Positions 3,781 through 51,533 are shown, counted from the first letter of the stretch. The stretch: 64,000 nucleotides of DNA from a virus (IMGVR_UViG_3300021431_000080:68460-132459), one strand, 5' to 3'. Notes: generated from the sequence alone by a model not told the origin. Numbers and translations are program-made.

Positions 3781-4977
3781 GTGAAGACAATATACAGGAC
3801 ATATAAGTTTAGAATGTATCCGAATGCAGAGCAACAAGAATTGTTGAGCAAGTATTTTGGGTGTGTTCGTTTTGTATATAATCATTTTCTAAATGAACGA
3901 AAGGAACAGTATAGAGAAACACAGAAATCCGACAATTATTATGAGCAGGCGAAGAAGTTGACTCTTCTAAAAAAACAAGAAGAATATTCTTGGTTGAAGG
4001 AAATCAACAGTCAGACACTTCAACACAGTTTAAGACATCTTGAATCAGCATACATCAATTTCTTTAGGGGAAATGCGAAATTTCCAAGATTCAAGTCAAA
4101 GAAAGATAGAAATTCCTTTGTTGTTCCACAGTTCTGTTCTATTGACTGTAATTCAATATCGTTACCTAAATTCAAATCTAACATAAAAATCAAGAAGCAT
4201 TGTGAAGTTAATGGTAATGTTCACTCTATGACAATATCAAAAGATTGTGATGGAAAGTACTATGTAGCAATTCTAACGGAACAACAATATAAACCTATAG
4301 AAAAAACTAACAAATCTGTTGGGATAGATTTAGGACTGAAAGATTTTGTCATAACATCTGATGGAAAGGTATATAAGAATCATAGATACACAAAGAAATA
4401 TGAAAGAAAATTAAGTAAGGCACAAAAGCATCTTTCTCGTAAACACAAAGACAGCAATTCTTATGAAAACCAAAGAAGAAAAGTTGTCAAGATTCACAAG
4501 AAGATTGTAAATTCAAGAAATGATATGTTGCATAAGGTTTCAACGGAACTTGTCAAAAATTACGACGTAATTTGTTGTGAGAACCTTAATGTGAAAGGAA
4601 TGATTAAGAACCATAAACTTGCAAAGCATATTGCAGATGTAAGTCGGGGAACTTTCATAAACTTTCTTGAATACAAATGCAATAGAGAAGATAAGACTTT
4701 GGTGAAAATAAACAGATACTTTCCAAGTTCACAGACTTGTAGTGAATGTGGATATATCAACCAAAACACTAAAGACTTGAGTGTACGGGAATGGACTTGT
4801 CCTAATTGTGGTAAACGCCACAACAGGGACTTGAATGCTTCAATCAATATCCTCAGAGAAGGATTGAAATCTCTATCGGCAGGGACTGTCGATTACACAG
4901 GTGGAGATGATGTAAGACTTGCTTGCAAGCAATTGTCTATGAAGCCTGAAGCCCACAAATCTTTAGTTTGTGGGTAG
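3781..4977 (+). CDS. tnpB: TnpB (IS200/IS605 OrfB, RuvC-like RNA-guided nuclease family)
   Basis: 398-aa ORF with an OrfB_IS605 N-terminus, a C-terminal zinc finger CSECG...CPNCG and a RuvC-III motif DLNASINIL. TAG stop at 4975. Confidence 0.85.
   Translation: MKTIYRTYKFRMYPNAEQQELLSKYFGCVRFVYNHFLNERKEQYRETQKSDNYYEQAKKLTLLKKQEEYSWLKEINSQTLQHSLRHLESAYINFFRGNAKFPRFKSKKDRNSFVVPQFCSIDCNSISLPKFKSNIKIKKHCEVNGNVHSMTISKDCDGKYYVAILTEQQYKPIEKTNKSVGIDLGLKDFVITSDGKVYKNHRYTKKYERKLSKAQKHLSRKHKDSNSYENQRRKVVKIHKKIVNSRNDMLHKVSTELVKNYDVICCENLNVKGMIKNHKLAKHIADVSRGTFINFLEYKCNREDKTLVKINRYFPSSQTCSECGYINQNTKDLSVREWTCPNCGKRHNRDLNASINILREGLKSLSAGTVDYTGGDDVRLACKQLSMKPEAHKSLVCG
4952..4974. mobile_element. IS200/IS605 right-end subterminal hairpin, overlapping the tnpB 3' end
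   Basis: Palindrome CCCACAAA-TCTTTAG-TTTGTGGG with the same loop as the left-end hairpin. Defines the IS boundaries at about 3260-4980. Confidence 0.55.
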
Positions 4978-7733: not shown

Positions 7734-8720
7734 ATGGTAAGATCTGTGACTTTCCCAGAGAACGGAACTGGGTACATATATGAAAAGGTAGAGAAGCCGA
7801 CAAAGCCTTTAAAGACTGATCCTCGGTATTATAACCATCAGGACAGGTATGAGTCCGACAACGAGGAGTACAAGAAGGAGATGGCTTACTACAGGAAGAA
7901 CAAAGGGAAATATATCCTGAAGTGTTCCGAGAACCTTGTAGGGAAGACTTTCTCTTTCGAGGACAAGAAAATCAACATGATATTCGGTCCAAATGGATCT
8001 GGAAAGACTACTATAATAAAAGCCATCGCCGGGCAGATGATGTGTGCAGATGGGTTCACTTCTTTCTGCGAGCCGTTGGAGTTCGGTTGTTTCAGAAGGC
8101 ATAGGACTATCGAGGAGATAATAGAGAAGAAGAAAAGGAATACGTCTGTTGTGGATATGGACGTTGTTCCTGTCTATTATGACAATTTCGAGTACACGAG
8201 AACGCATTCTACAGGTTATCTTGGTGACATGATGGGATCCATCATAAACAACATAGGCGACGAGCTCGCCTACATGATGAATTCAAATAAGATATCATCT
8301 GGTCAACATTCTCTGTTTGTTCTGAACAGGATAATAGAGATAGCGAAGAAGGAGGTTTCCATGGATGATATTGTGAACGTCGGGTTGTACAGATTCTTCC
8401 ATGGAAACTCAACGTGGCAAGATGCAGGAAAATATCAGAAGGATTACTTTAGCAAGCTTGAGAACTACAAGAAAAAGTCCCACCCCGTGCTTCTTTTCGA
8501 CGAGATAGACAAGTCACTTGACATAGAAGCTGTCTGGACATTGTACACGGATTTCTTCCCAAAGGTTATAGAGAAGTGGGGGAACCAGATAATAATGGTC
8601 AGTCACAATCCTCTTATTCTATCGGAAAATATTTTCAACAATGACAAATACAATATAATATCGGTGGATCCTTGCTACACAGATCATGTAAAAAGCATGT
8701 TGAAAGGTACGAAATTTTAA
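7734..8720 (+). CDS. ABC-type (SMC/RecF-like) ATPase
   Basis: 328 aa with Walker A FGPNGSGKTT, a signature-like SSGQ, Walker B LLFDEID and an H-loop SHN. Confidence 0.55.
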   Translation: MVRSVTFPENGTGYIYEKVEKPTKPLKTDPRYYNHQDRYESDNEEYKKEMAYYRKNKGKYILKCSENLVGKTFSFEDKKINMIFGPNGSGKTTIIKAIAGQMMCADGFTSFCEPLEFGCFRRHRTIEEIIEKKKRNTSVVDMDVVPVYYDNFEYTRTHSTGYLGDMMGSIINNIGDELAYMMNSNKISSGQHSLFVLNRIIEIAKKEVSMDDIVNVGLYRFFHGNSTWQDAGKYQKDYFSKLENYKKKSHPVLLFDEIDKSLDIEAVWTLYTDFFPKVIEKWGNQIIMVSHNPLILSENIFNNDKYNIISVDPCYTDHVKSMLKGTKF

Positions 8721-29380: not shown

Positions 29381-29583
29381 CTATTGGTCGAAGGTTCTTC
29401 ACACCAGAAACCATACTGTCAGTCTCGGCAGTGCAATGAGAGACCGTAAACGATCGAAACGTCAACAGATCCCCAACGCGACGGTGAGGGAAACGATGCC
29501 GAAGAAGCTTTGTTCAGGTGGTTGCGAGCTCTACAACAGATGTTCAGGCAATGTGAAGATAAGTCTGATAAAACCACTTATAT

Positions 29584-29657
29584 AGCGGGATGGACTGGAG
29601 AGGCTCCAGCTCGGCCTCATAAACCGAATGACGTGGGTTCAAATCCCACTCCCGCTA
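29584..29657 (+). tRNA. tRNA-Met/Ile2(CAT), third CAT species, slightly atypical 8-9 region
   Basis: Acceptor AGCGGGA/TCCCGCT, anticodon stem TCGGC/ACCGA with loop CTCATAA, T-arm GTGGGTTCAAATCCCAC. Confidence 0.5.
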
Positions 29658-29801
29658 CGAAAAACGACTATATATAGCTCAGAAGAGCCTGCAGGTCGAA
29701 GTCTAATGTAGTACATGGCGAACACAACAGGGAACTCGACAAAATCAAGCGGATGCTTGTTAGGTGACTACGCCGTGGGAGTTCGGTCGTTTTCTTTTTA
29801 T

Positions 29802-29885
29802 GCCCAGGTGGTGGAATTGGTAGACACGCCAGCTTGAGGGGCTGGTCCCGATTACGGGGTGCAGGTTCAAGTCCTGTCCTGGGCA
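29802..29885 (+). tRNA. tRNA-Leu(GAG), type II
   Basis: GCCCAGG-TG-GTG-GAATTGGTAGA-CAC, anticodon stem CCAGC/GCTGG with loop TTGAGGG, extra arm CCCG-ATTA-CGGG, T-arm GCAGGTTCAAGTCCTGT. Confidence 0.7.
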
Positions 29886-30023
29886 CAATGATTTTTGGCT
29901 AAGCGGTAACGAGCCAAACTGGTCATTAGTCAGATTGCCCCTGATGAATGTTGGGTGTCCGTGAAAGTCGGAGGAGAGTCTTCCAGTGTATCGTGTTCTA
30001 CTCCTAAAACAAGTAACAAGTAC

Positions 30024-30096
30024 GCCCTGTTAGTTCAGTAGGCAGAACAACTGTTTCGTAAACAGTAGGTCATTGGTTCAAATCCAGTACGGGGCT
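30024..30096 (+). tRNA. tRNA-Thr(CGT)
   Basis: Anticodon stem ACTGT/ACAGT with loop TTCGTAA; T-arm ATTGGTTCAAATCCAGT. Confidence 0.65.
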
Positions 30097-30105
30097 CAAA
30101 CACAC

Positions 30106-30178
30106 AGGGGATTGGTGTAGTGGTCTAGCATAGCGGTCTCCAAAACCGCAGACGGGGGCTCGAATCCTCCATCCCCTG
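30106..30178 (+). tRNA. tRNA-Trp(CCA), second copy, T-loop CTCGAAT
   Basis: Anticodon stem GCGGT/ACCGC with loop CTCCAAA. Confidence 0.55.
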
Positions 30179-30184
30179 CTAAAT

Positions 30185-30339
30185 GGTTCCATAGTTCAAC
30201 GGATAGAACATCGGTCTTTTACAGAGTTGTTCACTGGGACGAACATTTCCTGTATTTCCAAACAGGTGGATAAATGAGAGTTCGAATCTCTATACAGGAA
30301 CCTAAACCGGTAATGAGCGTTCGATTCGCTCTGGGACCA
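30185..30339 (+). tRNA. tRNA-Lys(TTT)-like gene interrupted by an 83-nt insert after the anticodon loop
   Basis: 5' part GGTTCCA-TA-GTTC-AACGGATA-GAAC-A-TCGGT-CTTTTAC at 30185-30222. 3' part ACCGG-TAAT-GAGCGTTCGATTCGCTC-TGGGACC-A at 30306-30339. Insert 30223-30305 opens with AGAGTTGTTCACTGGGACGAAC, the same motif as the 24798 insert, and carries the minihelix TCCTGTA...GAGAGTTCGAATCTCTA-TACAGGA. Confidence 0.5.
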
Positions 30340-30375
30340 CTAATTTTTTCAACCAAATTTTCAACTTTCATTTTT

Positions 30376-30395
30376 TATCGGTATCTTTGCATTGT
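30376..30395 (+). promoter_or_regulatory. Conserved promoter motif variant (TATCGGTATCTTTGCATTG)
   Basis: Lies ~40 nt upstream of the NfeD ATG. Confidence 0.45.
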
Positions 30396-30434
30396 AATCA
30401 ATTTATCATTTACAAATACAAAAAATAAAACACA

Positions 30435-34460: not shown

Positions 34461-35390
34461 ATGGAAAAGAAATATCATTATTTCTATAAAATCACAAATA
34501 CAAAAACTGGAAAATATTATTATGGTATCCATTCTACAAGCAATTTGAATGATGGATATATGGGTAGTGGGACACATCTTAAAATGGATTATGAAATTTA
34601 TGGGAAAGATGTATTTGTGAAAGAGATAATTAAATTTTTTGATACAAGAGAGGAAGCTTCTAAATTTGAAGCTAATGTTGTAAACGAAGATCTTGTATTT
34701 GATAAAGATTGTTATAACATTAAAATAGGAGGAGATTATGGGGTAACAACAAACACACTTCTTGTAGCAGATAAGAATGGTAGATATCATAGATGTACAC
34801 GTGACGATCCGAGATATATATCTGGAGAATGGAAGCATTTCTGTACAGGAATGTCTACTATGATAAACAAAGAAACAGGGGAAAAAGAATGGGTATCCGC
34901 TGAAATATATAGAAATAATAAAGACAAATATGCATCTATATTTAGCAATATGGTTCCTGTAATAGATGAAAACGGTGTATGTAAGCATGTTAGGGTTGAT
35001 TGCGAAGATATATTGACTGAAAAAGTGAAATATCTTTGGGATGGAAGAAAACACACAGAAGAGACAAAAGAAAAACAAAGAAAAACATTTGCAGAAATAC
35101 ATCATCAGCAAGGAGAAAAAAATTCACATTATGGAACAGTTTGGGTGTATAAAGACAAGGAGACAAAATGTATAAAGAAAGAAGACGAAGGTTTATACAT
35201 TAATAATGGCTGGAAAAAAGGAAGGTTTTTTGAAAAAGGAACATTTGATACACCGTCTGATTCCATTATAGATAAAAATGAACTTATAAAAATGAGAGAA
35301 AATAACATGTCTTGGTCTGAAATTGCGAAGCATTATGGTGTTGGAGAAAATACATTAATAAGGTATAGAAAAAGGCATGGTCTTTTGTAA
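34461..35390 (+). CDS. GIY-YIG homing endonuclease
   Basis: YHYFYKITNTKTGKYYYGIHS matches the GIY-YIG core. AT-rich, Lys-rich, with C-terminal NUMOD/HTH-like segments. Confidence 0.7.
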   Translation: MEKKYHYFYKITNTKTGKYYYGIHSTSNLNDGYMGSGTHLKMDYEIYGKDVFVKEIIKFFDTREEASKFEANVVNEDLVFDKDCYNIKIGGDYGVTTNTLLVADKNGRYHRCTRDDPRYISGEWKHFCTGMSTMINKETGEKEWVSAEIYRNNKDKYASIFSNMVPVIDENGVCKHVRVDCEDILTEKVKYLWDGRKHTEETKEKQRKTFAEIHHQQGEKNSHYGTVWVYKDKETKCIKKEDEGLYINNGWKKGRFFEKGTFDTPSDSIIDKNELIKMRENNMSWSEIAKHYGVGENTLIRYRKRHGLL

Positions 35391-35895: not shown

Positions 35896-36247
35896 ATGGG
35901 GGTGTTCTGGATTTTGATGCGGGATTTTGAGTTGGCGCAAGCAAGCCGTGATCTGTACAAACTCACGTAAAACAGATGTGCGAAAGATAGTTGGCAACAA
36001 CACCTACAGACTCGCTGCCTGAAAACCGCCGAAAGGCGTGAAGGCTTAATCCTGTCCACAAGAGGTGAATAGGACGAGCGTTCCACAGAGAGTTTCTCTG
36101 TTTGTTTCTCTGATTTTGGAGCGTCATCGAAAACAGTGGTTTGAAGTATAATCTTTTAGTTGCCTGAAGTTCAGGATAAGCTTGTAGAAAACGTCCGCTG
36201 GATGCCGTAGACCGCAGTTCGACTCTGCGCACCTCCACAATAAATAT

Positions 36248-40453: not shown

Positions 40454-41095
40454 ATGAAGTTTATTGTAGTAATGGTTTGGAAAGATAGAAAAGATGAATT
40501 AGAAAAATTAATTAAAGATAATGTTTCTTATGAGGAAATAGGGCGGATGTATGGATGCTCTGGTACAAATGTAAAACATGCTTGTAGAAGATTATGTATA
40601 GAATTAAAAAGAAGAAGGAAGGTAAATGAAAACGAAAACTTTGCTACAAAAGTAGCGAAAACAGGAATTTGTTTGAATTGTAACAAAGAATATGTTTTAT
40701 ATAAAAGTCATAATGGGAAATTTTGTTCGCATGAGTGTTGTACAGAATACAATAAGAACAAATATATATCAGAGTGGCTATCAGGAGAAAGATCAGGTTG
40801 TTCAAAGCGTTATAAATTAACGAAAAGTGTGAGGGAATATCTTTTTCAGCAGTCAAATTATACTTGTTCATCTTGTGGATTCAATACACCTAATCCATAT
40901 ACAGGAAACACAATACTGCAAATACATCATATAGATGGAGATGCAGCAAATACATCTATCGATAATTTAAAAGTTTTATGTCCAAACTGTCACGGATTAA
41001 CTGAAAATTTTGGATCAAGAAATAAAAACAAATCTGCAAGGCAATATAGAAGAGAAGAGTATAGAAAACAAGAAGATGATATCTTAAATAAATAA
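40454..41095 (+). CDS. HNH homing endonuclease
   Basis: 213 aa with HHIDGDAANTSIDNLKVLCPNCH plus CxxC pairs; AT-rich. Confidence 0.75.
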   Translation: MKFIVVMVWKDRKDELEKLIKDNVSYEEIGRMYGCSGTNVKHACRRLCIELKRRRKVNENENFATKVAKTGICLNCNKEYVLYKSHNGKFCSHECCTEYNKNKYISEWLSGERSGCSKRYKLTKSVREYLFQQSNYTCSSCGFNTPNPYTGNTILQIHHIDGDAANTSIDNLKVLCPNCHGLTENFGSRNKNKSARQYRREEYRKQEDDILNK

Positions 41096-41114: not shown

Positions 41115-41186
41115 GGGTGGTTAGTTCAATGGATAGAACTTCAGATTACGGCTCTGACGATAGGGATTCGACTTCTCTACCACCCA
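41115..41186 (+). tRNA. tRNA-Arg(ACG)
   Basis: GGGTGGT-TA-GTTC-AATGGATA-GAAC, anticodon stem TCAGA/TCTGA with loop TTACGGC, acceptor ACCACCC. Confidence 0.65.
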
Positions 41187-41243
41187 CAAAAAATAAAAAA
41201 GTTTGAAAAAATTTCACTGAAAACTTTTTTCTTTCGAAAATAA

Positions 41244-41319: not shown

Positions 41320-41393
41320 TTCCTCGTAGCTCATTTTGGATAGAGCGCAAACCTCTTAAGTTTGAAGTAATTGGTTCAAATCCAATCGACAGT
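41320..41393 (+). tRNA. tRNA-Lys(CTT)-like with an unpaired acceptor (possible pseudo-tRNA)
   Basis: Good D-arm (GCTC-ATTTTGGATA-GAGC), anticodon arm (CAAAC-CTCTTAA-GTTTG) and T-arm (ATTGGTTCAAATCCAAT). The flanking 7-mers (TTCCTCG / CGACAGT) do not pair. Confidence 0.35.
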
Positions 41394-41559: not shown

Positions 41560-41800
41560 TTTACTTGCCGAGCACTTTACACCAGATGCCAGCTGAGAGT
41601 TTCATCGATTCGTCGGTTCGAATCCGACTTCACCCGCTCAAGGGAGAATGGCGAAATGGTATACGCGAAAGACTGCAGATCTTTTATCACAATGTTTCAC
41701 TCTCCGCAGTATTCACTGGTGTTATCTTAAAGCTCGGTTTCCAATGGAGATCGAGCTTTTTTATTTTAAAACATATATAATTATTAACTATAAACTGTAA
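41560..41800 (+). ncRNA. Candidate Y-RNA-like (YrlA-type) non-coding RNA upstream of the Ro60 gene
   Basis: ORF-free segment with a tRNA T-arm mimic (GTCGGTTCGAATCCGAC at 41616-41632) and GNRA loops (GCGAAATGG, CGCGAAAGA). Position matches the known rsr/Y-RNA arrangement. Confidence 0.3.
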
Positions 41801-41804
41801 AGTT

Positions 41805-43448
41805 ATGCCACAGATGAAGAAGAGAAACGGGCAGCTCATGAATGCCCTCGGCTCGATGGCTCCAAAGGAGCGAATCGAAGCAGCAAACAACGTTCCTGAT
41901 TATGACGATGTGAACATTCAGGGTCACAAGGCTTATGCTCTGCCTGACGAGCTCAAGCTCCTTTCTATGCTCAACACATTGAAACTGGAGTCGCAGTTCT
42001 ATCGCAACGAGGAGTCCACAATGAAGGAACTTCGTGAGCTCATCGAGCGCGTTGCAGTGAAGGATCCTTATTTCGCTGCACAGTGTGTGTGCTGGTCCAG
42101 AAACCTCGGTGAGAAGATGCGTTCGGTCAGCCACCTCGCCGCAGCTCTCATGGCTCCGTTCGCCTCCGGTCAGGAGTGGGGAAAGCGTTTCTACGGTCTG
42201 TTCGACAAGAAGTCGAAGACTGGCGGATGTGTCTTCCGTACCGACGATATGCGTGAGATCAAGGATATCCACAACACCCTCACAGGCGGCACCCCTCTGT
42301 CTTCCGCCATGAAGAAGGGATTCGCCAACGCGATCGAGAAGATGGACAACTACCAGCTTGCCAAGTACCGCGATGTTATCATCGATATTTCGAACATCGC
42401 CCACCCGGATCCGAGCAAGTCTTCGGCTGAGGTCGACATCGAGATCAACGGCAAGACTGTCCACATGAAGACCATCGACGCTATCATGAAGGGATACACG
42501 GTGTCTGCAGACACATGGGAGGTCGCCAACTCTGAAGCAGGACAGCTCGTCGCTGAGGCTGTCAAGGAAGGTAAGCTCGATGAGGAAGAGGCGAAGACTG
42601 TTCTCGCCGAGGCGAAGAACGACAACTGGGAAGGTCTGCTTGAGGACGGCCGCCTCGGTATGCTCGCCGCACTCCGCAACATCCGCAACATGATGAAGAA
42701 CCCCCGTGAGAGTGTCATCAACAAGCTCTGTGAGCTCGTGTCGGACGGAAAGAAGATCCGCAACTCTGGTGTCATGCCTTACCACATTGACATCGCCTAC
42801 GAGACAATCGTAAACGAGTTCTCTGGATCCCAGTACGCCTCCAAGGTGATGAACGCCCTCCTGCAGGGATATGAGGCTTCGGTGCCTAACCTCGCCGTCG
42901 CTCTCCCTGGCAAGACTCTTGTCGTAGTCGACTGTTCTGGATCGATGTCCACCAGAATGAGAAATGGTCAGGGATACATGACATCGAGCTGTATCCAGAA
43001 GGCTTCCCTCGTGGCTGCGACAATCGCCAAGGGCGCAAACGCCGATGTCATCTGCTTCGGTAGCAACGCTGAGTGGTACACTGGAAGCCGCGACAAGAGT
43101 GTGTTCGACATTTCAAGGGATCTCAACCACGCAAACATGGGCGGAACCTATTTCGGCAGCGCGTTCGAGCTCGCCCGCCGCAGCAAAAAGGCATACGACC
43201 GAATAATCGTCCTGTCCGACAACGAGTGCAACTACGGTCTGACGAGGGAGCACTACAAGAGCTACATCCACGATGTGTGTGATCCTTACATCTACAGCAT
43301 CGACCTCGCTTCCTACGGTACAACCCAGTTCAAGGGCGAGAAGGTGATCAACTACTTCGGATACGGCTACGCGCTGTTCGACGACATCGCCAGCCGCGAG
43401 TTCAACCCGAGTAGAGTCATCAACAAGGTTAAATCCTATGTGATTTAG
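41805..43448 (+). CDS. Ro60-like TROVE-domain protein with a C-terminal vWA domain
   Basis: 547 aa. N-terminal alpha-helical TROVE-like region. C-terminal vWA with the MIDAS motif VVVDCSGSM. GC-rich. TAG stop. Confidence 0.55.
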   Translation: MPQMKKRNGQLMNALGSMAPKERIEAANNVPDYDDVNIQGHKAYALPDELKLLSMLNTLKLESQFYRNEESTMKELRELIERVAVKDPYFAAQCVCWSRNLGEKMRSVSHLAAALMAPFASGQEWGKRFYGLFDKKSKTGGCVFRTDDMREIKDIHNTLTGGTPLSSAMKKGFANAIEKMDNYQLAKYRDVIIDISNIAHPDPSKSSAEVDIEINGKTVHMKTIDAIMKGYTVSADTWEVANSEAGQLVAEAVKEGKLDEEEAKTVLAEAKNDNWEGLLEDGRLGMLAALRNIRNMMKNPRESVINKLCELVSDGKKIRNSGVMPYHIDIAYETIVNEFSGSQYASKVMNALLQGYEASVPNLAVALPGKTLVVVDCSGSMSTRMRNGQGYMTSSCIQKASLVAATIAKGANADVICFGSNAEWYTGSRDKSVFDISRDLNHANMGGTYFGSAFELARRSKKAYDRIIVLSDNECNYGLTREHYKSYIHDVCDPYIYSIDLASYGTTQFKGEKVINYFGYGYALFDDIASREFNPSRVINKVKSYVI

Positions 43449-43511: not shown

Positions 43512-43531
43512 AAGTATCTTTGCATTGTAAT
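43512..43531 (+). promoter_or_regulatory. Conserved promoter motif variant
   Basis: AAGTATCTTTGCATTGTAAT; the ATG at 43547 follows. Confidence 0.45.
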
Positions 43532-43546
43532 CGAAACGAAACGGAA

Positions 43547-44131
43547 ATGATAACTAAACTCTCAGGAGAAGGAATCTGGTTCACAAGTGATACCCATTTT
43601 AATCACAAGAACATCCTGCAGTTCACCAAGCGCCCGTGGAAGACGATAGAGGAGCACGACGAGGCTCTGATAAAGAACTGGAACGATGTTGTTGGAGTGG
43701 ACGACACTGTGTTCCATCTCGGAGACTTCTGCTTCGGAAATTCACAGAAGGTGGTTGAAGTCCGCGAGAAATTGAACGGGAACATAATACTGATCAGGGG
43801 AAACCACGACGACAAGAACCTGCAGAGAAGCCTCTGGACATTGTTCGATGAGGTTTTGTATCAAGCGAGAATTCAGATTGACGGAAGAACTGTGTACCTG
43901 AACCATTTTCCGTTCCTCTGTTTCGCTCATGGGAACCCCTCGATATATAGGGACTGGGCTGTGAACCTGTTTGGACACGTCCACTCGGGACCGGGATCGA
44001 AATCTGAGGATGTGTCGAGACTTGACAACTTGTTCCCTACTCAGTATGATGTCGGAGTTGACAATAACGATTACAAACCAATTTCGTGGAAAGAGGTGAT
44101 GAAGAAGATAAATAAGCAGATAGAGAATTGA
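43547..44131 (+). CDS. Calcineurin-like metallophosphoesterase
   Basis: GDFCFG, LIRGNHDD and GHVHSG motifs (in order GDxxxG, GNHD, GHxH). Confidence 0.7.
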   Translation: MITKLSGEGIWFTSDTHFNHKNILQFTKRPWKTIEEHDEALIKNWNDVVGVDDTVFHLGDFCFGNSQKVVEVREKLNGNIILIRGNHDDKNLQRSLWTLFDEVLYQARIQIDGRTVYLNHFPFLCFAHGNPSIYRDWAVNLFGHVHSGPGSKSEDVSRLDNLFPTQYDVGVDNNDYKPISWKEVMKKINKQIEN

Positions 44132-44507: not shown

Positions 44508-44664
44508 CGGTAATATGGAGGTGTGGTGAAATTGGTAGACACGATGGATTTATATGAGAGTAAACTCTATTGACAAATCGTAACTGCATAGAGTGGGTTA
44601 AATTGGTTCGATTCCAATATGCAGTTCAAGCTCCATTGGGAAATCCGTGTGGGTTCGAATCCCA
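44508..44664 (+). tRNA. Type II (Leu-like body) tRNA with anticodon TAT, interrupted by a ~76-nt insert at 37/38
   Basis: 5' part GGAGGTG-TG-GTG-AAATTGGTAGA-CAC-G-ATGGA-TTTATA at 44508-44545. 3' part C-TCCAT-TGGGAAATCCG-GTGGGTTCGAATCCCAC-CACCTCT-A at 44622-44664. The insert carries the minihelix ACTGCAT-AGAGTGGGTTAAA-TTGGTTCGATTCCAAT-ATGCAGT. Confidence 0.45.
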
Positions 44665-44707
44665 CCACCTCTACTCAGAATCAGAGTTCTATTAATCAAA
44701 AAATAAA

Positions 44708-48368: not shown

Positions 48369-49048
48369 AGTACGACACCAACTGTGGTTACGATGATGAG
48401 ATGACTCTATATGTTATGGAGAACAACTCAATCGACTACAGGATGATCGTTGGCAAGGACGGTCACAATCCTTCGGTGTCTGGCACAGACTGGTACTGCA
48501 ATGCCATCGCGTCTGTCATATCATTGAAAAGTCCAGATCTTGAGGAATGTTCGCTGGACGAACTTCCAGAGGCTGTCAAGATATCCTTCGGTTTGTCCAA
48601 GCCTGTTGTGGATCTTTCATTGCTGCACATGTTCAAGTGTGAGAAATGCTGTTTTGCCTGCAAGAATATGTTCAATCTTATGGGCAAAACATCAAAATGC
48701 AGCTGCGAGTCTCCAGACAGTAACGAGCATTTTTGTTTCTACTGCTGCAACAAGTTCGATCCTGCAGGTGATGGTGTCGTCAACAAGAGGATTGCCGAAT
48801 ATGCCAGCAGCATCTTTCCTGAATCCGTAGAGATAGATGGACACACGTATTCGTTTGTGTGTGAACGATATGATAAGCTTGGCATGTGGGGATATTCATA
48901 TTCAGATGAAATTCATCATTCCGCCTGTGTCACTGACGGGATATACCAATACTACCTTGCATCAGTGTTCCCGAAACAGGAAGATGCCGCCATCGATCTC
49001 GCAGGCAAACTATCAAGATACCTAAACCATAAAAACCAGACAATATGA
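48338..49048 (+). CDS. Cys-rich hypothetical protein
   Basis: 236 aa with many CxxC pairs. Confidence 0.4.
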   Translation: MSKQFFRAKIKYDTNCGYDDEMTLYVMENNSIDYRMIVGKDGHNPSVSGTDWYCNAIASVISLKSPDLEECSLDELPEAVKISFGLSKPVVDLSLLHMFKCEKCCFACKNMFNLMGKTSKCSCESPDSNEHFCFYCCNKFDPAGDGVVNKRIAEYASSIFPESVEIDGHTYSFVCERYDKLGMWGYSYSDEIHHSACVTDGIYQYYLASVFPKQEDAAIDLAGKLSRYLNHKNQTI

Positions 49049-49938
49049 TCTACAACGAAAAAAGATATTTCAACATAAGCATATTAAACCTGCACTTCTG
49101 TCTGAAGCAGCATTTCGTGTATTTCGACAAAGAGAAACAGATTCCTGTTTACAGGAAGGTTTTCAAAATATATTATGAGAAGGACAACGGGAACGACTGG
49201 ATTCATAAAGAATGGCTCAACTTTTACACAGGGTGGGAGAAACCGTGTCTTGTCTACGACACTTTCTCGTATGAAGACGACAACAGGCACCATATGAGAA
49301 TGTCATTGGGATGGGGATTGCTTTACCTTTATTTCCCATGGAAGAACCACGGTACTGACTGGAACGATTTCAACGATCCAGAACCTAAGTACGGATATTA
49401 CTTCTATGGAGAGGGAAAGTTCTTCGACCAGATTGTATTTGAGTTCGGAAAGAAATCAAAGACAGTCGATATGCCGTGGGCTTTGGATTTCTACAAGAAA
49501 GGTGTGATGTTGAAAAACAGTGTTTGGTGGACATGTAATGAAAAAGATATCAAGAAGGCAAAAAAACAAGGCATACAGACTTGGAAAGATCTAAGATTCA
49601 ATCTCGATGATGATGACGAGAGGATTCTGAAAAAGAAATATCCGTTCACTTATGTCACGAAAAATGGAGAAATTCAGAACACAACTGCTACATGCCATGT
49701 AGAAATTCGTGAATGGAGACCGAAATGGTTTATGTGGACGAAGGCTTTTCGTTTCATCAGAAGGGATTTGGAAATAAATTTTAATGACGAAATGGGAAAC
49801 AGAAGGGGTTCTTGGAAAGGCGGTGTTCTTGGAGTGAGCGCACCTATAACAAGAGATGAGATATACGCGGAAGATTTCGAGACTCCTTTAAGAAGATATG
49901 AGGAGAAAGTCAACAGAATCCACGATTATGACAGATGA
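49045..49938 (+). CDS. Hypothetical Trp-rich protein
   Basis: 297-aa ORF. Confidence 0.45.
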   Translation: MIYNEKRYFNISILNLHFCLKQHFVYFDKEKQIPVYRKVFKIYYEKDNGNDWIHKEWLNFYTGWEKPCLVYDTFSYEDDNRHHMRMSLGWGLLYLYFPWKNHGTDWNDFNDPEPKYGYYFYGEGKFFDQIVFEFGKKSKTVDMPWALDFYKKGVMLKNSVWWTCNEKDIKKAKKQGIQTWKDLRFNLDDDDERILKKKYPFTYVTKNGEIQNTTATCHVEIREWRPKWFMWTKAFRFIRRDLEINFNDEMGNRRGSWKGGVLGVSAPITRDEIYAEDFETPLRRYEEKVNRIHDYDR

Positions 49939-50021: not shown

Positions 50022-51533
50022 ATGATAATCAATACAGAAATCAAGGATTTTACAAGGAATGGTGTTCCTGTCGTCGATTCATACGGTAGGTGCAAGCGTC
50101 TTCTGATTGTGTCGTATGTTGATCCGGAAAACCACGTTAAGTTATTCGGATATCCGATACCTGAAGAAATGATGTATCAGTGGAAGTATGCCAGAAAGAA
50201 CGAGGTTCCTGATTCACAATATACATCGTGGGATTTCAAGCCAGTCATAAAGGAGCCGATTGTAGGAAACTTTACAGAACAGCGCGTCCACGAAATAATC
50301 ATGGATCTTGAGAGGCTGTACCCAAATGATCCACAAATCAAATTGTTCAACGAACTCTACATACCAGAGACGACGTTCGCCGATATCGAGACGGATGTTG
50401 ACGAAATCGGTTTTTCGAGTCCGTCGGAGTGCAGGACTAACGTGAACACGTGTTCCTTTGTGAGAGGAGAGAATGCCTGTGTCGTAGGATTGGCTAAACT
50501 AAGCGAAGACGATATAAAATGGATACAGGAAGAAATAGACAAGCATACCGCTCCTTTGGGCGTGCGTTATGATTTCGCCTACAGATATCACGAGAATGAA
50601 GTGAGTCTGTTGAATGACATATTCTTCAATTTCATACAGACAGCCGACTGTGTGTCTGGATGGAACTGGTTCGGGTACGACTGGCCTTATCTTGTAAACA
50701 TAGCGAAGAAATACGGGATAGACATACAGGGGCTGAGCCCGACGAAGACTTGGGCGGACTACAAGCCGATGATGGCTAAGACCAAGGACGACAGTGTGAA
50801 GGTTCCTATGCACAGAGGTATGTACGACTACATGGAAATCTACAAGAAGTGGGACAGGAGCGTTAACCCAAAGATACAGAATAAACTTGACTGGGTCGCA
50901 GAGACTGTGTTGGGTGTGAAGAAGGTTGAGCACAAGCTTGGGTTTAGGGAACTCTGGAGGGAGGATCCGAGGTTGTATGTGTTCTACAACGCAATCGACA
51001 GTGTGCTTATCAGGGAGATTGACAAGAAAATCAGGACAGCGTCGACGTTCTTCGGTTTCGCCAACCTGATGCACACTCCTGCTTTGACTGCATTCAGCTC
51101 TACGAAGAGCATCGAGATTGTGCAGGCTGAGTATTTGTATAAGGAGAACAGGATATTCCCGAAGGTGAAGAAAGAGATTGTTGAGAAGGAGGAAAAGTAC
51201 GAAGGAGCGTTCGTGTTTGAGCCTAATCCAGGGACATTTAAGGGAGTCTTGACAGCCGACTATGCGAGTTTGTACCCTTCCACAATTCGTCAATTTAACA
51301 TGTCGCCTGAGACTTTTCTTCTTAAAGATAAGAATCATGTTCCAACAGCGGACGAAATAAAATGTGTAAGCGGAGCTGTTTATACAAATAAATTCAAAGG
51401 ATTCATTCCCAAGATTTTGGATGATTTCTATGCAAAAAGAAAATCATTCAAAAAGAAGATGATTGTTGCACAGGAAGAAGCTTATGAAATAGAACAAATA
51501 CTCGAAAGAAGGAAGAAATCTTCTATAATATAA
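50022..51533 (+). CDS. Family B DNA polymerase, N-terminal portion (exonuclease domain through motif A); gene appears split or truncated
   Basis: 503 aa. Motif A DYASLYPS sits near the C-terminus and a Kx3 region follows. The ORF stops (TAA, then TGA) before motifs B (KxxxNSxYG) and C (YGDTDS). No continuation directly downstream. Confidence 0.7.
   Translation: MIINTEIKDFTRNGVPVVDSYGRCKRLLIVSYVDPENHVKLFGYPIPEEMMYQWKYARKNEVPDSQYTSWDFKPVIKEPIVGNFTEQRVHEIIMDLERLYPNDPQIKLFNELYIPETTFADIETDVDEIGFSSPSECRTNVNTCSFVRGENACVVGLAKLSEDDIKWIQEEIDKHTAPLGVRYDFAYRYHENEVSLLNDIFFNFIQTADCVSGWNWFGYDWPYLVNIAKKYGIDIQGLSPTKTWADYKPMMAKTKDDSVKVPMHRGMYDYMEIYKKWDRSVNPKIQNKLDWVAETVLGVKKVEHKLGFRELWREDPRLYVFYNAIDSVLIREIDKKIRTASTFFGFANLMHTPALTAFSSTKSIEIVQAEYLYKENRIFPKVKKEIVEKEEKYEGAFVFEPNPGTFKGVLTADYASLYPSTIRQFNMSPETFLLKDKNHVPTADEIKCVSGAVYTNKFKGFIPKILDDFYAKRKSFKKKMIVAQEEAYEIEQILERRKKSSII

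Follow-up and report, generated by a model that had tools for sequence, protein, structure and literature searches.

To our knowledge, the textbook introns in the transfer RNAs (tRNAs) of bacteria and their phages are self-splicing group I ribozymes only. The bacterial group I introns of anticodon loops are found in the cyanobacterial tRNA-Leu-UAA, the Azoarcus tRNA-Ile and the tRNA-Asn/Asp of Patescibacteria (PMC13011429). In 2019, Devoto et al. described 'enigmatic introns' in the tRNAs of Lak megaphages, one of which was predicted to encode a tRNA (PMC6784885), and a 2026 survey (PMC13037316) mentions introns of this kind in 262 jumbo-phage genomes. For these tRNA-shaped introns of 65-141 nucleotides (nt), widespread in huge phages and noticed since 2019, the literature searched gives no architecture, splice rule or mechanism. 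The element analyzed here is an intron in a tRNA-Arg(UCU) gene of a virus, located on the plus strand of a 64,000-nt stretch of DNA (IMGVR_UViG_3300021431_000080:68460-132459, to be referred to as the window). Judged by its sequence and predicted fold, it is a member of the Lak-type class of megaphage tRNA introns. The initial annotation of the window considered such inserts not to be a described class, which the two reports on phage introns contradict.

Like the Lak introns, the Arg intron is located in the anticodon loop of a phage tRNA, has a length (83 nt) within the range of about 65-140 nt for such inserts, and is flanked by exons that restore a cloverleaf. In the Lak introns (79-141 nt, sequences from Table S6 of Devoto et al.), a 5' hairpin, the loop of which is rich in A, is joined by an A-rich linker to a tRNA-like 3' module, whose last nucleotide is C. 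On re-analysis, the introns of Lak-A1, Lak-A2 and Lak-B1 obey both of the splice rules given below. On the other hand, the Arg intron has a pseudoknot and a 1-nt linker, its site is 34/35 (between nucleotides 34 and 35 of the tRNA), and its phage has a GC content of 42%, as compared to 26% in Lak.

Four other systems resemble the Arg intron in part. Group I introns share the bacterial-type tRNA gene and the anticodon loop, and interrupt tRNA-Leu(UAA) at 34/35. However, they require a P1-P9 core, with a length of at least about 200 nt, and a 5' exon that ends in U and an intron that ends in G. All of this is missing here: the Arg intron has 83 nt, far below group I size as the initial annotation recognized, ends in C and has no group I match in Rfam. 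The archaeal and eukaryal introns with a bulge-helix-bulge (BHB) motif, processed by EndA/Sen and RtcB or Trl1, are also short and near the anticodon, and the tRNA body keeps their exons together for ligation. In comparison, the folds and inspection allow no BHB motif here (two 3-nt bulges separated by a 4-base-pair helix), the sites lie in the joints of a multi-helix junction and are measured from intron structures, and the setting is bacterial, with a transfer-messenger RNA (tmRNA) in the tRNA array. In mascRNA (from MALAT1) and the micro-pre-tRNAs cut by tRNase Z, a stack of acceptor and T-arm followed by an unpaired nucleotide suffices, and the cut is made after that nucleotide (PMC9141469). 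The flanks of these RNAs stay unjoined, whereas those of the Arg intron are tRNA halves that need religation; cuts of this type have not been described as splice sites. Finally, in the phage T4 repair pathway (cutting by PrrC, healing by Pnkp, sealing by Rnl1) a phage ligase also reseals an anticodon loop beside the wobble base, but the damage is inflicted by the host, the ends are a 2',3'-cyclic phosphate and a 5'-OH, and no intervening sequence is removed.

The gene spans 30185-30340 and is interrupted by exactly 83 nt, confirming the insert length proposed in the initial annotation. The program ARAGORN, in intron mode, reports i(35,83), which places the intron immediately after the wobble base and gives the anticodon TCT. 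The parts of the gene are as follows.

30185-30218, plus strand: exon 1, with the 5' strand of the acceptor stem, the D-arm (loop AACGGAUA), the 5' strand of the anticodon stem, and C32, U33 and U34 (ARAGORN, cloverleaf, alignment to the L006 gene)
30219-30301, plus strand: intron, 83 nt, site 34/35
30302-30340, plus strand: exon 2, with C35, U36, A37 and A38, the 3' strand of the anticodon stem, the variable loop, the T-arm, the 3' strand of the acceptor stem, A73 and C74

The spliced product is tRNA-Arg(UCU). The spliced sequence forms a clean Arg(tct) cloverleaf in ARAGORN, every annotated full-length match to it among GenBank phages (blastn) is a tRNA-Arg, and A20 in its D-loop supports the same identity. 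Moreover, an intron-less tRNA-Arg(TCT) gene in a related phage (L006, 12550-12621) aligns to the split gene with a single gap, located exactly between 30218 and 30302. Unspliced, the gene scores below the threshold of the Rfam tRNA model (RF00005); the homologous allele of another relative of the window phage (L084) is above it, with 46.8 bits.

Within the intron, the following elements are predicted.

30219-30221, plus strand: UUA, an unpaired stretch of 3 nt that links the 5' splice site to helix S1 (class consensus W-U-A)
30222-30245, plus strand: 5' pseudoknot, with S1 formed by CAG (30222-30224) and CUG (30234-30236), and S2 by UGUUC (30228-30232) and GAACA (30241-30245)
30247-30254, plus strand: 5' strand of the acceptor-like helix (UUCCUGUA), 8/8 pairs with 30293-30300, supported by class covariation
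30255-30275, plus strand: variable middle, with the hairpin UCCA-AACAGG-UGGA, D-arm-like, GG in the loop (minimum free energy and centroid structures of RNAfold)
30276-30292, plus strand: T-arm-like hairpin GAGAG-UUCGAAU-CUCUA (RNAfold, class alignment)
30293-30301, plus strand: 3' strand of the acceptor-like helix (UACAGGAA) and a single unpaired C, with the 3' splice site after this C, 14 nt past the T-loop

The fold of the insert (RNAfold) is Y-shaped, with a long stem enclosing a small hairpin and a T-arm with the loop UUCGAAU. The acceptor-like stem and T-arm had been noticed before; the stem is extended here to UUCCUGUA/UACAGGAA, with 8 base pairs (bp). Release of the intron is expected to produce the fragment ends ...ACAGGAAC (3' end) and UUACAGAG (start).

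The 5' region starts with UUA, and the first strand of S1 follows at +4, as in the rest of the class. However, S1 is here part of an H-type pseudoknot, while other members have a simple hairpin in its place (for example CAG-AGUAAA-CUG). The pseudoknot is found in three introns, those of the Arg and Asn genes of the window and that of L084. S1 (CAG/CUG or CGG/CCG) is paired into the loop of S2 (UGUUC/GAACA, GGUUC/GAACC or GAUUC/GAAUC), and S2 takes the place of the A-rich linker, leaving a gap of 0-3 nt to the acceptor-like helix (1 nt in the Arg intron). All eight pairs of the two helices are formed in the three homologues (100%), and the value falls to 7-48% in slid registers. Compensatory changes are seen in three of these pairs, which account for six of the eight variable columns; with three sequences, this is suggestive of covariation but not proof. 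The Arg and Asn introns of the window share GTTCACTGGGACGAAC, which has exactly two occurrences on the plus strand of the window (24804 and 30229). Their 27-nt 5' elements show three differences, two of which form one compensatory base pair. The homology of these two nearly identical 5' parts, proposed in the initial annotation, is thereby supported.

A detailed comparison was made of 21 curated introns from about nine phages: Lak-A1, Lak-A2 and Lak-B1, four IMG/VR contigs found in a motif scan (L007, L009, L015 and L030), the two relatives of the window phage (L006 and L084), and the window itself. Their host genes are those for Asn, Tyr, Thr, Lys, Ala, Phe, Gly, Met, Arg and Leu, and the introns are 65-141 nt long. 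At the 3' end, exactly 13 helix nucleotides (the T-stem and the 8-bp acceptor-like stem) and then one C separate the T-loop from exon 2 in 20/20 aligned introns; the corresponding module in the Arg intron is 30276-30301. In a gapless alignment of the 20 introns, 96.9% of the cells of this 13-layer helix are paired, a value somewhat inflated as the acceptor-like 5' strand was picked by best pairing, compared to 53% in shuffles and 30-48% in slid registers. Compensatory changes are present in 12 of the 13 pairs. Judged from these alignments, the 8/8 complementarity in 19/20 introns cannot be due to chance. The middle region is variable in length, from 7 to about 85 nt.

At the 5' end, the intron begins with W-U-A (AUG once), and S1, with 3-5 bp, starts at +4 in 20 of the 21 introns. 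The U at +2 is invariant. S1 is formed by at least eight different complementary stems, usually with the loop AGUAAA, and is followed by an A-rich linker of 9-14 nt, often with AAAUC.

The insertion site, on the other hand, is 34/35, 35/36 or 36/37, and varies even among orthologous genes. It is 34/35 in the Arg-UCU gene of the window and 35/36 in those of L084 and L030, 34/35 in the Asn gene of the window and 35/36 in that of L007, and 36/37 in the Tyr gene of the window and 35/36 in that of L007. This variation within the anticodon loop suggests that the splice sites are read from the intron rather than the host tRNA, with the shape of the intron determining where the cuts are made.

The products predicted by these rules are all sensible. 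The exons are intact in 21/21 cases, a 7-nt loop with a sensible anticodon is always restored, type-II bodies give Tyr or Leu, and the body with G3-U70 gives Ala. A Lak gene that tRNAscan, in eukaryote mode, calls 'Tyr-GTA' has a type-I body and G73; it is Asn-GUU under the rules, and Lak-A has no intact Asn-GUU gene. At least this one Lak isotype is therefore mis-called. A register shifted by -1, with the cut after N73, was rejected: type-II bodies would give Asp or Cys, type-I bodies Ser, and a body without G3-U70 Ala. It is also contradicted by the intron-less Lak allele, whose boundary is one nucleotide off the tRNAscan prediction (PMC6784885) and is consistent with an intron end at C.

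Besides the Arg gene, the window contains three more split genes, two of which (Tyr and Leu) were overlooked in the initial annotation.

24761-24916, plus strand: split tRNA-Asn(GUU), intron 24794-24876, 83 nt, site 34/35, same 5' pseudoknot as the Arg intron (ARAGORN, intron mode)
21624-21824, plus strand: split type-II tRNA-Tyr(GUA), intron 21661-21777, 117 nt, site 36/37 (custom scanner)
44517-44674, plus strand: split type-II tRNA-Leu(UAA), intron 44552-44627, 76 nt, site 34/35, 5' hairpin GAG-AGUAAA-CUC

The Tyr intron has the 5' hairpin GUG-AGUAAA-CAC and a complete tRNA-like body, which ARAGORN reports as 'tRNA-???' at 21689-21777. The Rfam tRNA model spans the Leu insert (44517-44673, 46 bits), and the junction after U34 gives Leu(UAA). 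The spliced Asn sequence, like that of the Arg gene, gives a clean cloverleaf. The pair U1-A72 and G73 are typical of bacterial tRNA-Asn. Both are present in the split Asn gene, which matches Lys, Asn and Thr genes but no Ile gene. Its T-arm (within 24877-24916) is aberrant, GAGAU-AUCGUAA-UUCUC, without G53-C61 and without U54/A58; the homologous Asn gene of L007 has GAGAU-UUCGAAA-UUCUC.

The four split genes, for Tyr, Asn, Arg-UCU and Leu-UAA, are exactly those absent among the 35 intact tRNA genes of the window, a count that covers the visible 64 kb of the genome. The intact set includes Lys-UUU (23535) and Ile-GAU (28635). That the split genes fill exactly the gaps in the intact set argues for their function, as well as against a Lys/Ile register. 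The four genes are probably functional, and the suggestion in the initial annotation that they are disrupted pseudogenes is unlikely.

Taken together, the Arg gene may well, at about an even chance, produce a functional tRNA-Arg(UCU) whose intron is cut out by proteins, with an RNase Z-type cut at the 3' site, and whose exons are sealed by a phage RNA ligase. The initial annotation had listed tRNA-maturation enzymes plus a ligase among its options, and this coincides with the mechanism best supported here. In this mechanism, the tRNA-like module of the intron would be recognized by the enzymes that process tRNA ends. An RNase Z-type endonuclease would cut after the first unpaired nucleotide (C), leaving a 5'-phosphate on exon 2, and RNase P would possibly also cut, at the 5' end of the module. 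A second endonuclease, either a host enzyme similar to RNase E/G or a phage enzyme, would cut 3 nt before S1 and leave a 3'-OH on exon 1. The body of the tRNA would hold the exons together for sealing by a phage ATP-dependent RNA ligase of the Rnl2/PF09414 type.

For the 3' cut, tRNase Z is known to process micro-pre-tRNAs that lack the D and anticodon arms as well as full pre-tRNAs, and with more than 11 stacked bp the mammalian enzyme cuts only after the nucleotide next to the helix (PMC9141469). The bacterial enzyme is blocked by CCA (PMC1874595). According to these two studies, a substrate has a T-loop, a stack of 12 bp or more, and an unpaired nucleotide that is not followed by CCA. The module of the Arg intron has 13 layers, the T-loop, the unpaired C, and CUA rather than CCA; no intron of the class has CCA at the 3' cut position. 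The conserved N-1:N73 pair would move the RNase Z cut from after N73 to after C. In addition, RNase P RNA contacts C74 by base pairing through its L15 loop (PMC1874595), and the module is therefore probably a substrate of RNase P as well.

The intron ends with the same N73-C74 signature as the intact tRNA genes. In 31 of the 35 intact genes of the window, N73-C74 is followed by a nucleotide other than C (A in 20, T in 6, G in 5), and CCA is present in one. N73-C74 without CCA is also found in 18/18 genes of Lak-A1, 19/19 of Lak-B1, 32/38 of LR756501 and 42/42 of LR745206. It looks like a general signature of huge-phage tRNAs, perhaps related to the pairing with L15 of RNase P or to the definition of the 3' end. 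The intact genes without CCA need endonucleolytic 3' maturation and completion of CCA. The same pattern occurs on the contigs L006, L007, L009, L015, L030, L075-L078, L082 and L083, and in the window over 21167-44303.

At the 5' site, the fixed distance to S1 and the invariant U+2 fit a structure-guided endonuclease acting on a single strand. RNase E/G have a preference for U at +2. Two other candidates for this step were rejected. RNase P would be expected to cut where the acceptor-like helix begins, which is 24-32 nt past the splice site, and exonucleolytic trimming of exon 1 would have no stop at 34, 35 or 36 and would find the S1 helix in its way.

The 5'-phosphate left by RNase Z and the 3'-OH from a hydrolytic 5' cut are substrates of ATP-dependent RNA ligases. 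Genes for such a ligase are present inside the intron-bearing tRNA arrays of L007 and L015.

L007 6844-7515 (= L086 10001-10669), L087 10001-10654; L015 874-2076: PF09414 RNA ligase, with a reverse transcriptase gene (RVT_1) adjoining the L015 array

The ligase is 97-100% conserved between two phages. Lak encodes an Rnl2-type ligase together with a CCA-adding enzyme (Devoto et al., Table S7, PMC6784885).

Several points weigh against protein-catalyzed splicing. Splicing itself is deduced from the sequences, for the Lak introns as well as here. The candidate for the 5' nuclease is a weak one, chosen by resemblance (the invariant U+2 and an A/U-rich single strand). The canonical bacterial RNase Z cuts after N73, and the shift by one nucleotide is documented for mammalian tRNase ZL but not for bacterial enzymes. 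Long 5' leaders inhibit tRNase Z, so that an earlier cut by RNase P would be required, and as a result exon 1 would keep a structured 3' tail. The tRNA-Leu intron departs from one rule by 1 nt, with S1 at +5. Moreover, Pfam and PHROGs searches of about 50 open reading frames (ORFs) of the 64-kb window, with some small ORFs outside the scan, detected neither an RNA ligase or RtcB nor a tRNA-intron endonuclease, although the ORFs do include a Ro60-like protein, a metallophosphoesterase and a protein with a HAD 'RNA repair' domain. Finally, RNA ligases are common in jumbo phages, and the co-occurrence of the ligase is therefore weak evidence.

The main rival is that the intron is a small ribozyme, with S1, the A-rich linker and the T-loop helix as a catalytic core. 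This core would cleave the RNA at the 5' boundary of the intron, or carry out both steps, and proteins would only ligate or would be unneeded. Splice sites defined by the intron, independent of the position in the loop, are also expected from a ribozyme. The S1 loop AGUAAA and the linker AAAUC are conserved beyond the needs of a simple hairpin, the 5' element can be a pseudoknot, a fold often seen in small ribozymes whose cleavage site is at the 5' edge, and splicing by proteins names no specific 5' nuclease. However, no Rfam ribozyme family matches 30150-30400, 24700-24980 or 21600-21860 even at E<=10, and none of the known self-cleaving ribozymes (hammerhead, twister, pistol, hatchet, HDV-like) is recognized by Rfam. 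No known ribozyme or group I intron was detected by permissive Rfam searches of the four loci, or at the gathering threshold in nine related loci. The smallest class member has 65 nt, of which 33 nt are plain T-arm/acceptor helix, and the middle region tolerates lengths from 7 to about 85 nt. In addition, tRNA-processing proteins recognize just such a shape, tRNA-like and with N73-C74. A ribozyme is thus unlikely, though it is the competitor that survives best.

It is still less probable that the split genes are dead copies hit by a mobile element, or decoys or carriers of a tRNA-like RNA that is freed by RNase P and RNase Z. Related introns do vary in their host tRNA (Tyr in L007, Phe in L015) and in their position within the loop, suggesting mobility, genes for homing-type endonucleases (HNH and GIY-YIG) are scattered in the arrays, and the host tRNA-Asn has the aberrant T-loop AUCGUAA. 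On the other hand, the exons of dead genes would hardly be intact in all 21 cases with the loop and anticodon restored, the split genes are the sole source of Asn, Tyr, Arg-UCU and Leu-UAA in the window, and the Lak introns are conserved across host cohorts (PMC6784885).

The identities proposed in the initial annotation, tRNA-Lys(UUU) with an insert at 30223-30305 (site 37/38 or 38/39, 4 nt off) and a sister tRNA-Ile(GAU), also give a 7-nt loop (CUUUUAC) but are highly improbable, as the gene body has A20 and matches tRNA-Arg only, the gap relative to the intron-less orthologue disagrees with this register, both class rules are broken (helix at +4, 13 nt followed by C), Lys-UUU and Ile-GAU are already intact in the window while Arg-UCU and Asn are not, and the sister gene is Asn(GTT) in ARAGORN, with U1-A72, G73 and no Ile matches. 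A BHB intron (splicing endonuclease and RtcB) or a miniature group I intron is just as improbable: the location in the anticodon loop fits, and a group I intron at 34/35 is known in bacterial tRNA-Leu(UAA), but the sites vary from 34/35 to 36/37, the ORFs scanned have no tRNA-intron endonuclease domain, the last nucleotide of these 65-141-nt introns is always C rather than G, and any of the four nucleotides (G, U, A or C) is found at the end of the 5' exon.

If splicing by tRNA end-processing enzymes and a ligase is correct, these introns could, more tentatively, represent a third way of tRNA splicing in the bacterial world, in which a truncated-tRNA intron borrows end-processing nucleases and a phage ligase closes the loop. 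This would be a protein-dependent splicing pathway made from tRNA maturation enzymes, and the intron a new kind of mobile RNA element. As it would carry all of its own splice signals, the intron could move from one tRNA gene to another and occupy any anticodon loop, at any of several positions. A complete tRNA set would then depend on a phage-encoded ligase, and this dependence could set the time at which late genes are translated, or keep the anticodon loop out of reach of the host's anticodon nucleases. The window contributes four members to the class, the pseudoknotted variant included. The feature is real, its anatomy was correctly described in the initial annotation, its class is already known, and its mechanism is testable through three rules that are new here: the 5' cut is 3 nt before S1, the 3' cut is after C, and the position in the loop is irrelevant. 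The rules also correct isotype calls, to Arg/Asn from Lys/Ile in the window and to Asn from 'Tyr' in Lak. Standard tools miss or mis-assign the split genes, and as a result phage tRNA sets look incomplete.

The tRNA and its intron appear to be exchanged as a unit. A comparison of L084 (1-844) with the window (29500-30341) shows 98% identity from window position 30342 onward. Upstream of this, the tRNA-Arg(UCU) gene of L084 is a different one; its intron, homologous to that of the window, has 92 nt and is located at 35/36. The breakpoint is at the 3' end of the tRNA, as expected for the exchange of a tRNA-plus-intron cassette.

Searches for further members gave few true cases. The initial annotation had proposed metagenomic phage contigs as the place to look for the shared motif inside tRNA genes; the exact 16-mer GTTCACTGGGACGAAC has five matches in IMG/VR, all of them chance matches outside tRNAs, and a degenerate pattern of the pseudoknot has no match there. 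Blastn of the intron against GenBank phages gives T-arm-sized matches only. The pattern AGAGTAAAC..RGTTCGAWTCY has 68 matches in IMG/VR, of which three are true introns and most are type-II tRNAs of the ordinary kind or other tRNA-like RNAs. The pattern TACAGAGTAAACTG..GGTTCGAWTCC has no match in 185,579 bacterial and archaeal genomes, which weakly favors a restriction of the class to phages. The tRNA regions of the huge phages LR756501 and LR745206 contain no class member by the custom scanner. A structured element of about 120 nt (..CTGGTTCGAAACAGAGTAAAC...GTGGGTTCGATTCCCAT..) is conserved in eight IMG/VR contigs (L016, L025, L027, L029, L031, L036, L042 and L049). It has the AGAGUAAAC motif as in the introns as well as a T-arm, and is located outside any recognizable tRNA.

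The window is a portion of a huge-phage-like genome, with a GC content of about 42%. An array on the plus strand, at 21-45 kb, contains the 35 intact tRNA genes and the tmRNA (35898-36238, tag GNNTYRLAA). No close relative of the window genome was found among GenBank phages. The metagenome contig AUXO018072128.1 matches the window at 100% identity over 2.4 kb, and the SPFH protein of the window has 79-88% identity to its counterparts on several other metagenome and IMG/VR contigs. The array also includes an amber-suppressor-type tRNA(CUA) (26055-26126), and the ORFs of the window still read well in the standard code. Three tRNAs have A34 in the anticodon, Phe-AAA (23127-23200), Pro-AGG (26259-26331) and Arg-ACG (41115-41187); the first two anticodons are unusual for bacteria-type decoding.

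Free-standing genes for homing-type endonucleases are located in the array, two of the HNH type (23687-24517 and 40454-41095) and one of the GIY-YIG type (34461-35390), and a TnpB/OrfB_IS605 gene (3781-4977) is upstream of it. These genes may mobilize tRNA/intron cassettes at the DNA level. Elsewhere, the window encodes a DnaK/Hsp70 homologue (36-1934, E 1e-217), an AAA ATPase with a weak intein-like insertion (7734-8720), an Acb3-like CBASS inhibitor (49045-49938), and a 503-residue fragment of a family-B DNA polymerase, possibly split (50022-51533).

The ORF at 41805-43448 encodes a Ro60/TROVE protein with a vWA domain, and the metallophosphoesterase gene (43520-44131) is directly downstream of it. 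Two tRNA-like RNAs precede the ORF, at 41324-41389 and 41642-41703 (45.6 and 32.8 bits with the Rfam tRNA model), the first of which is bordered by complementary arms. Together, this ORF and the tRNA-like RNAs look like a phage Ro-Y RNA (YrlA-like) module.

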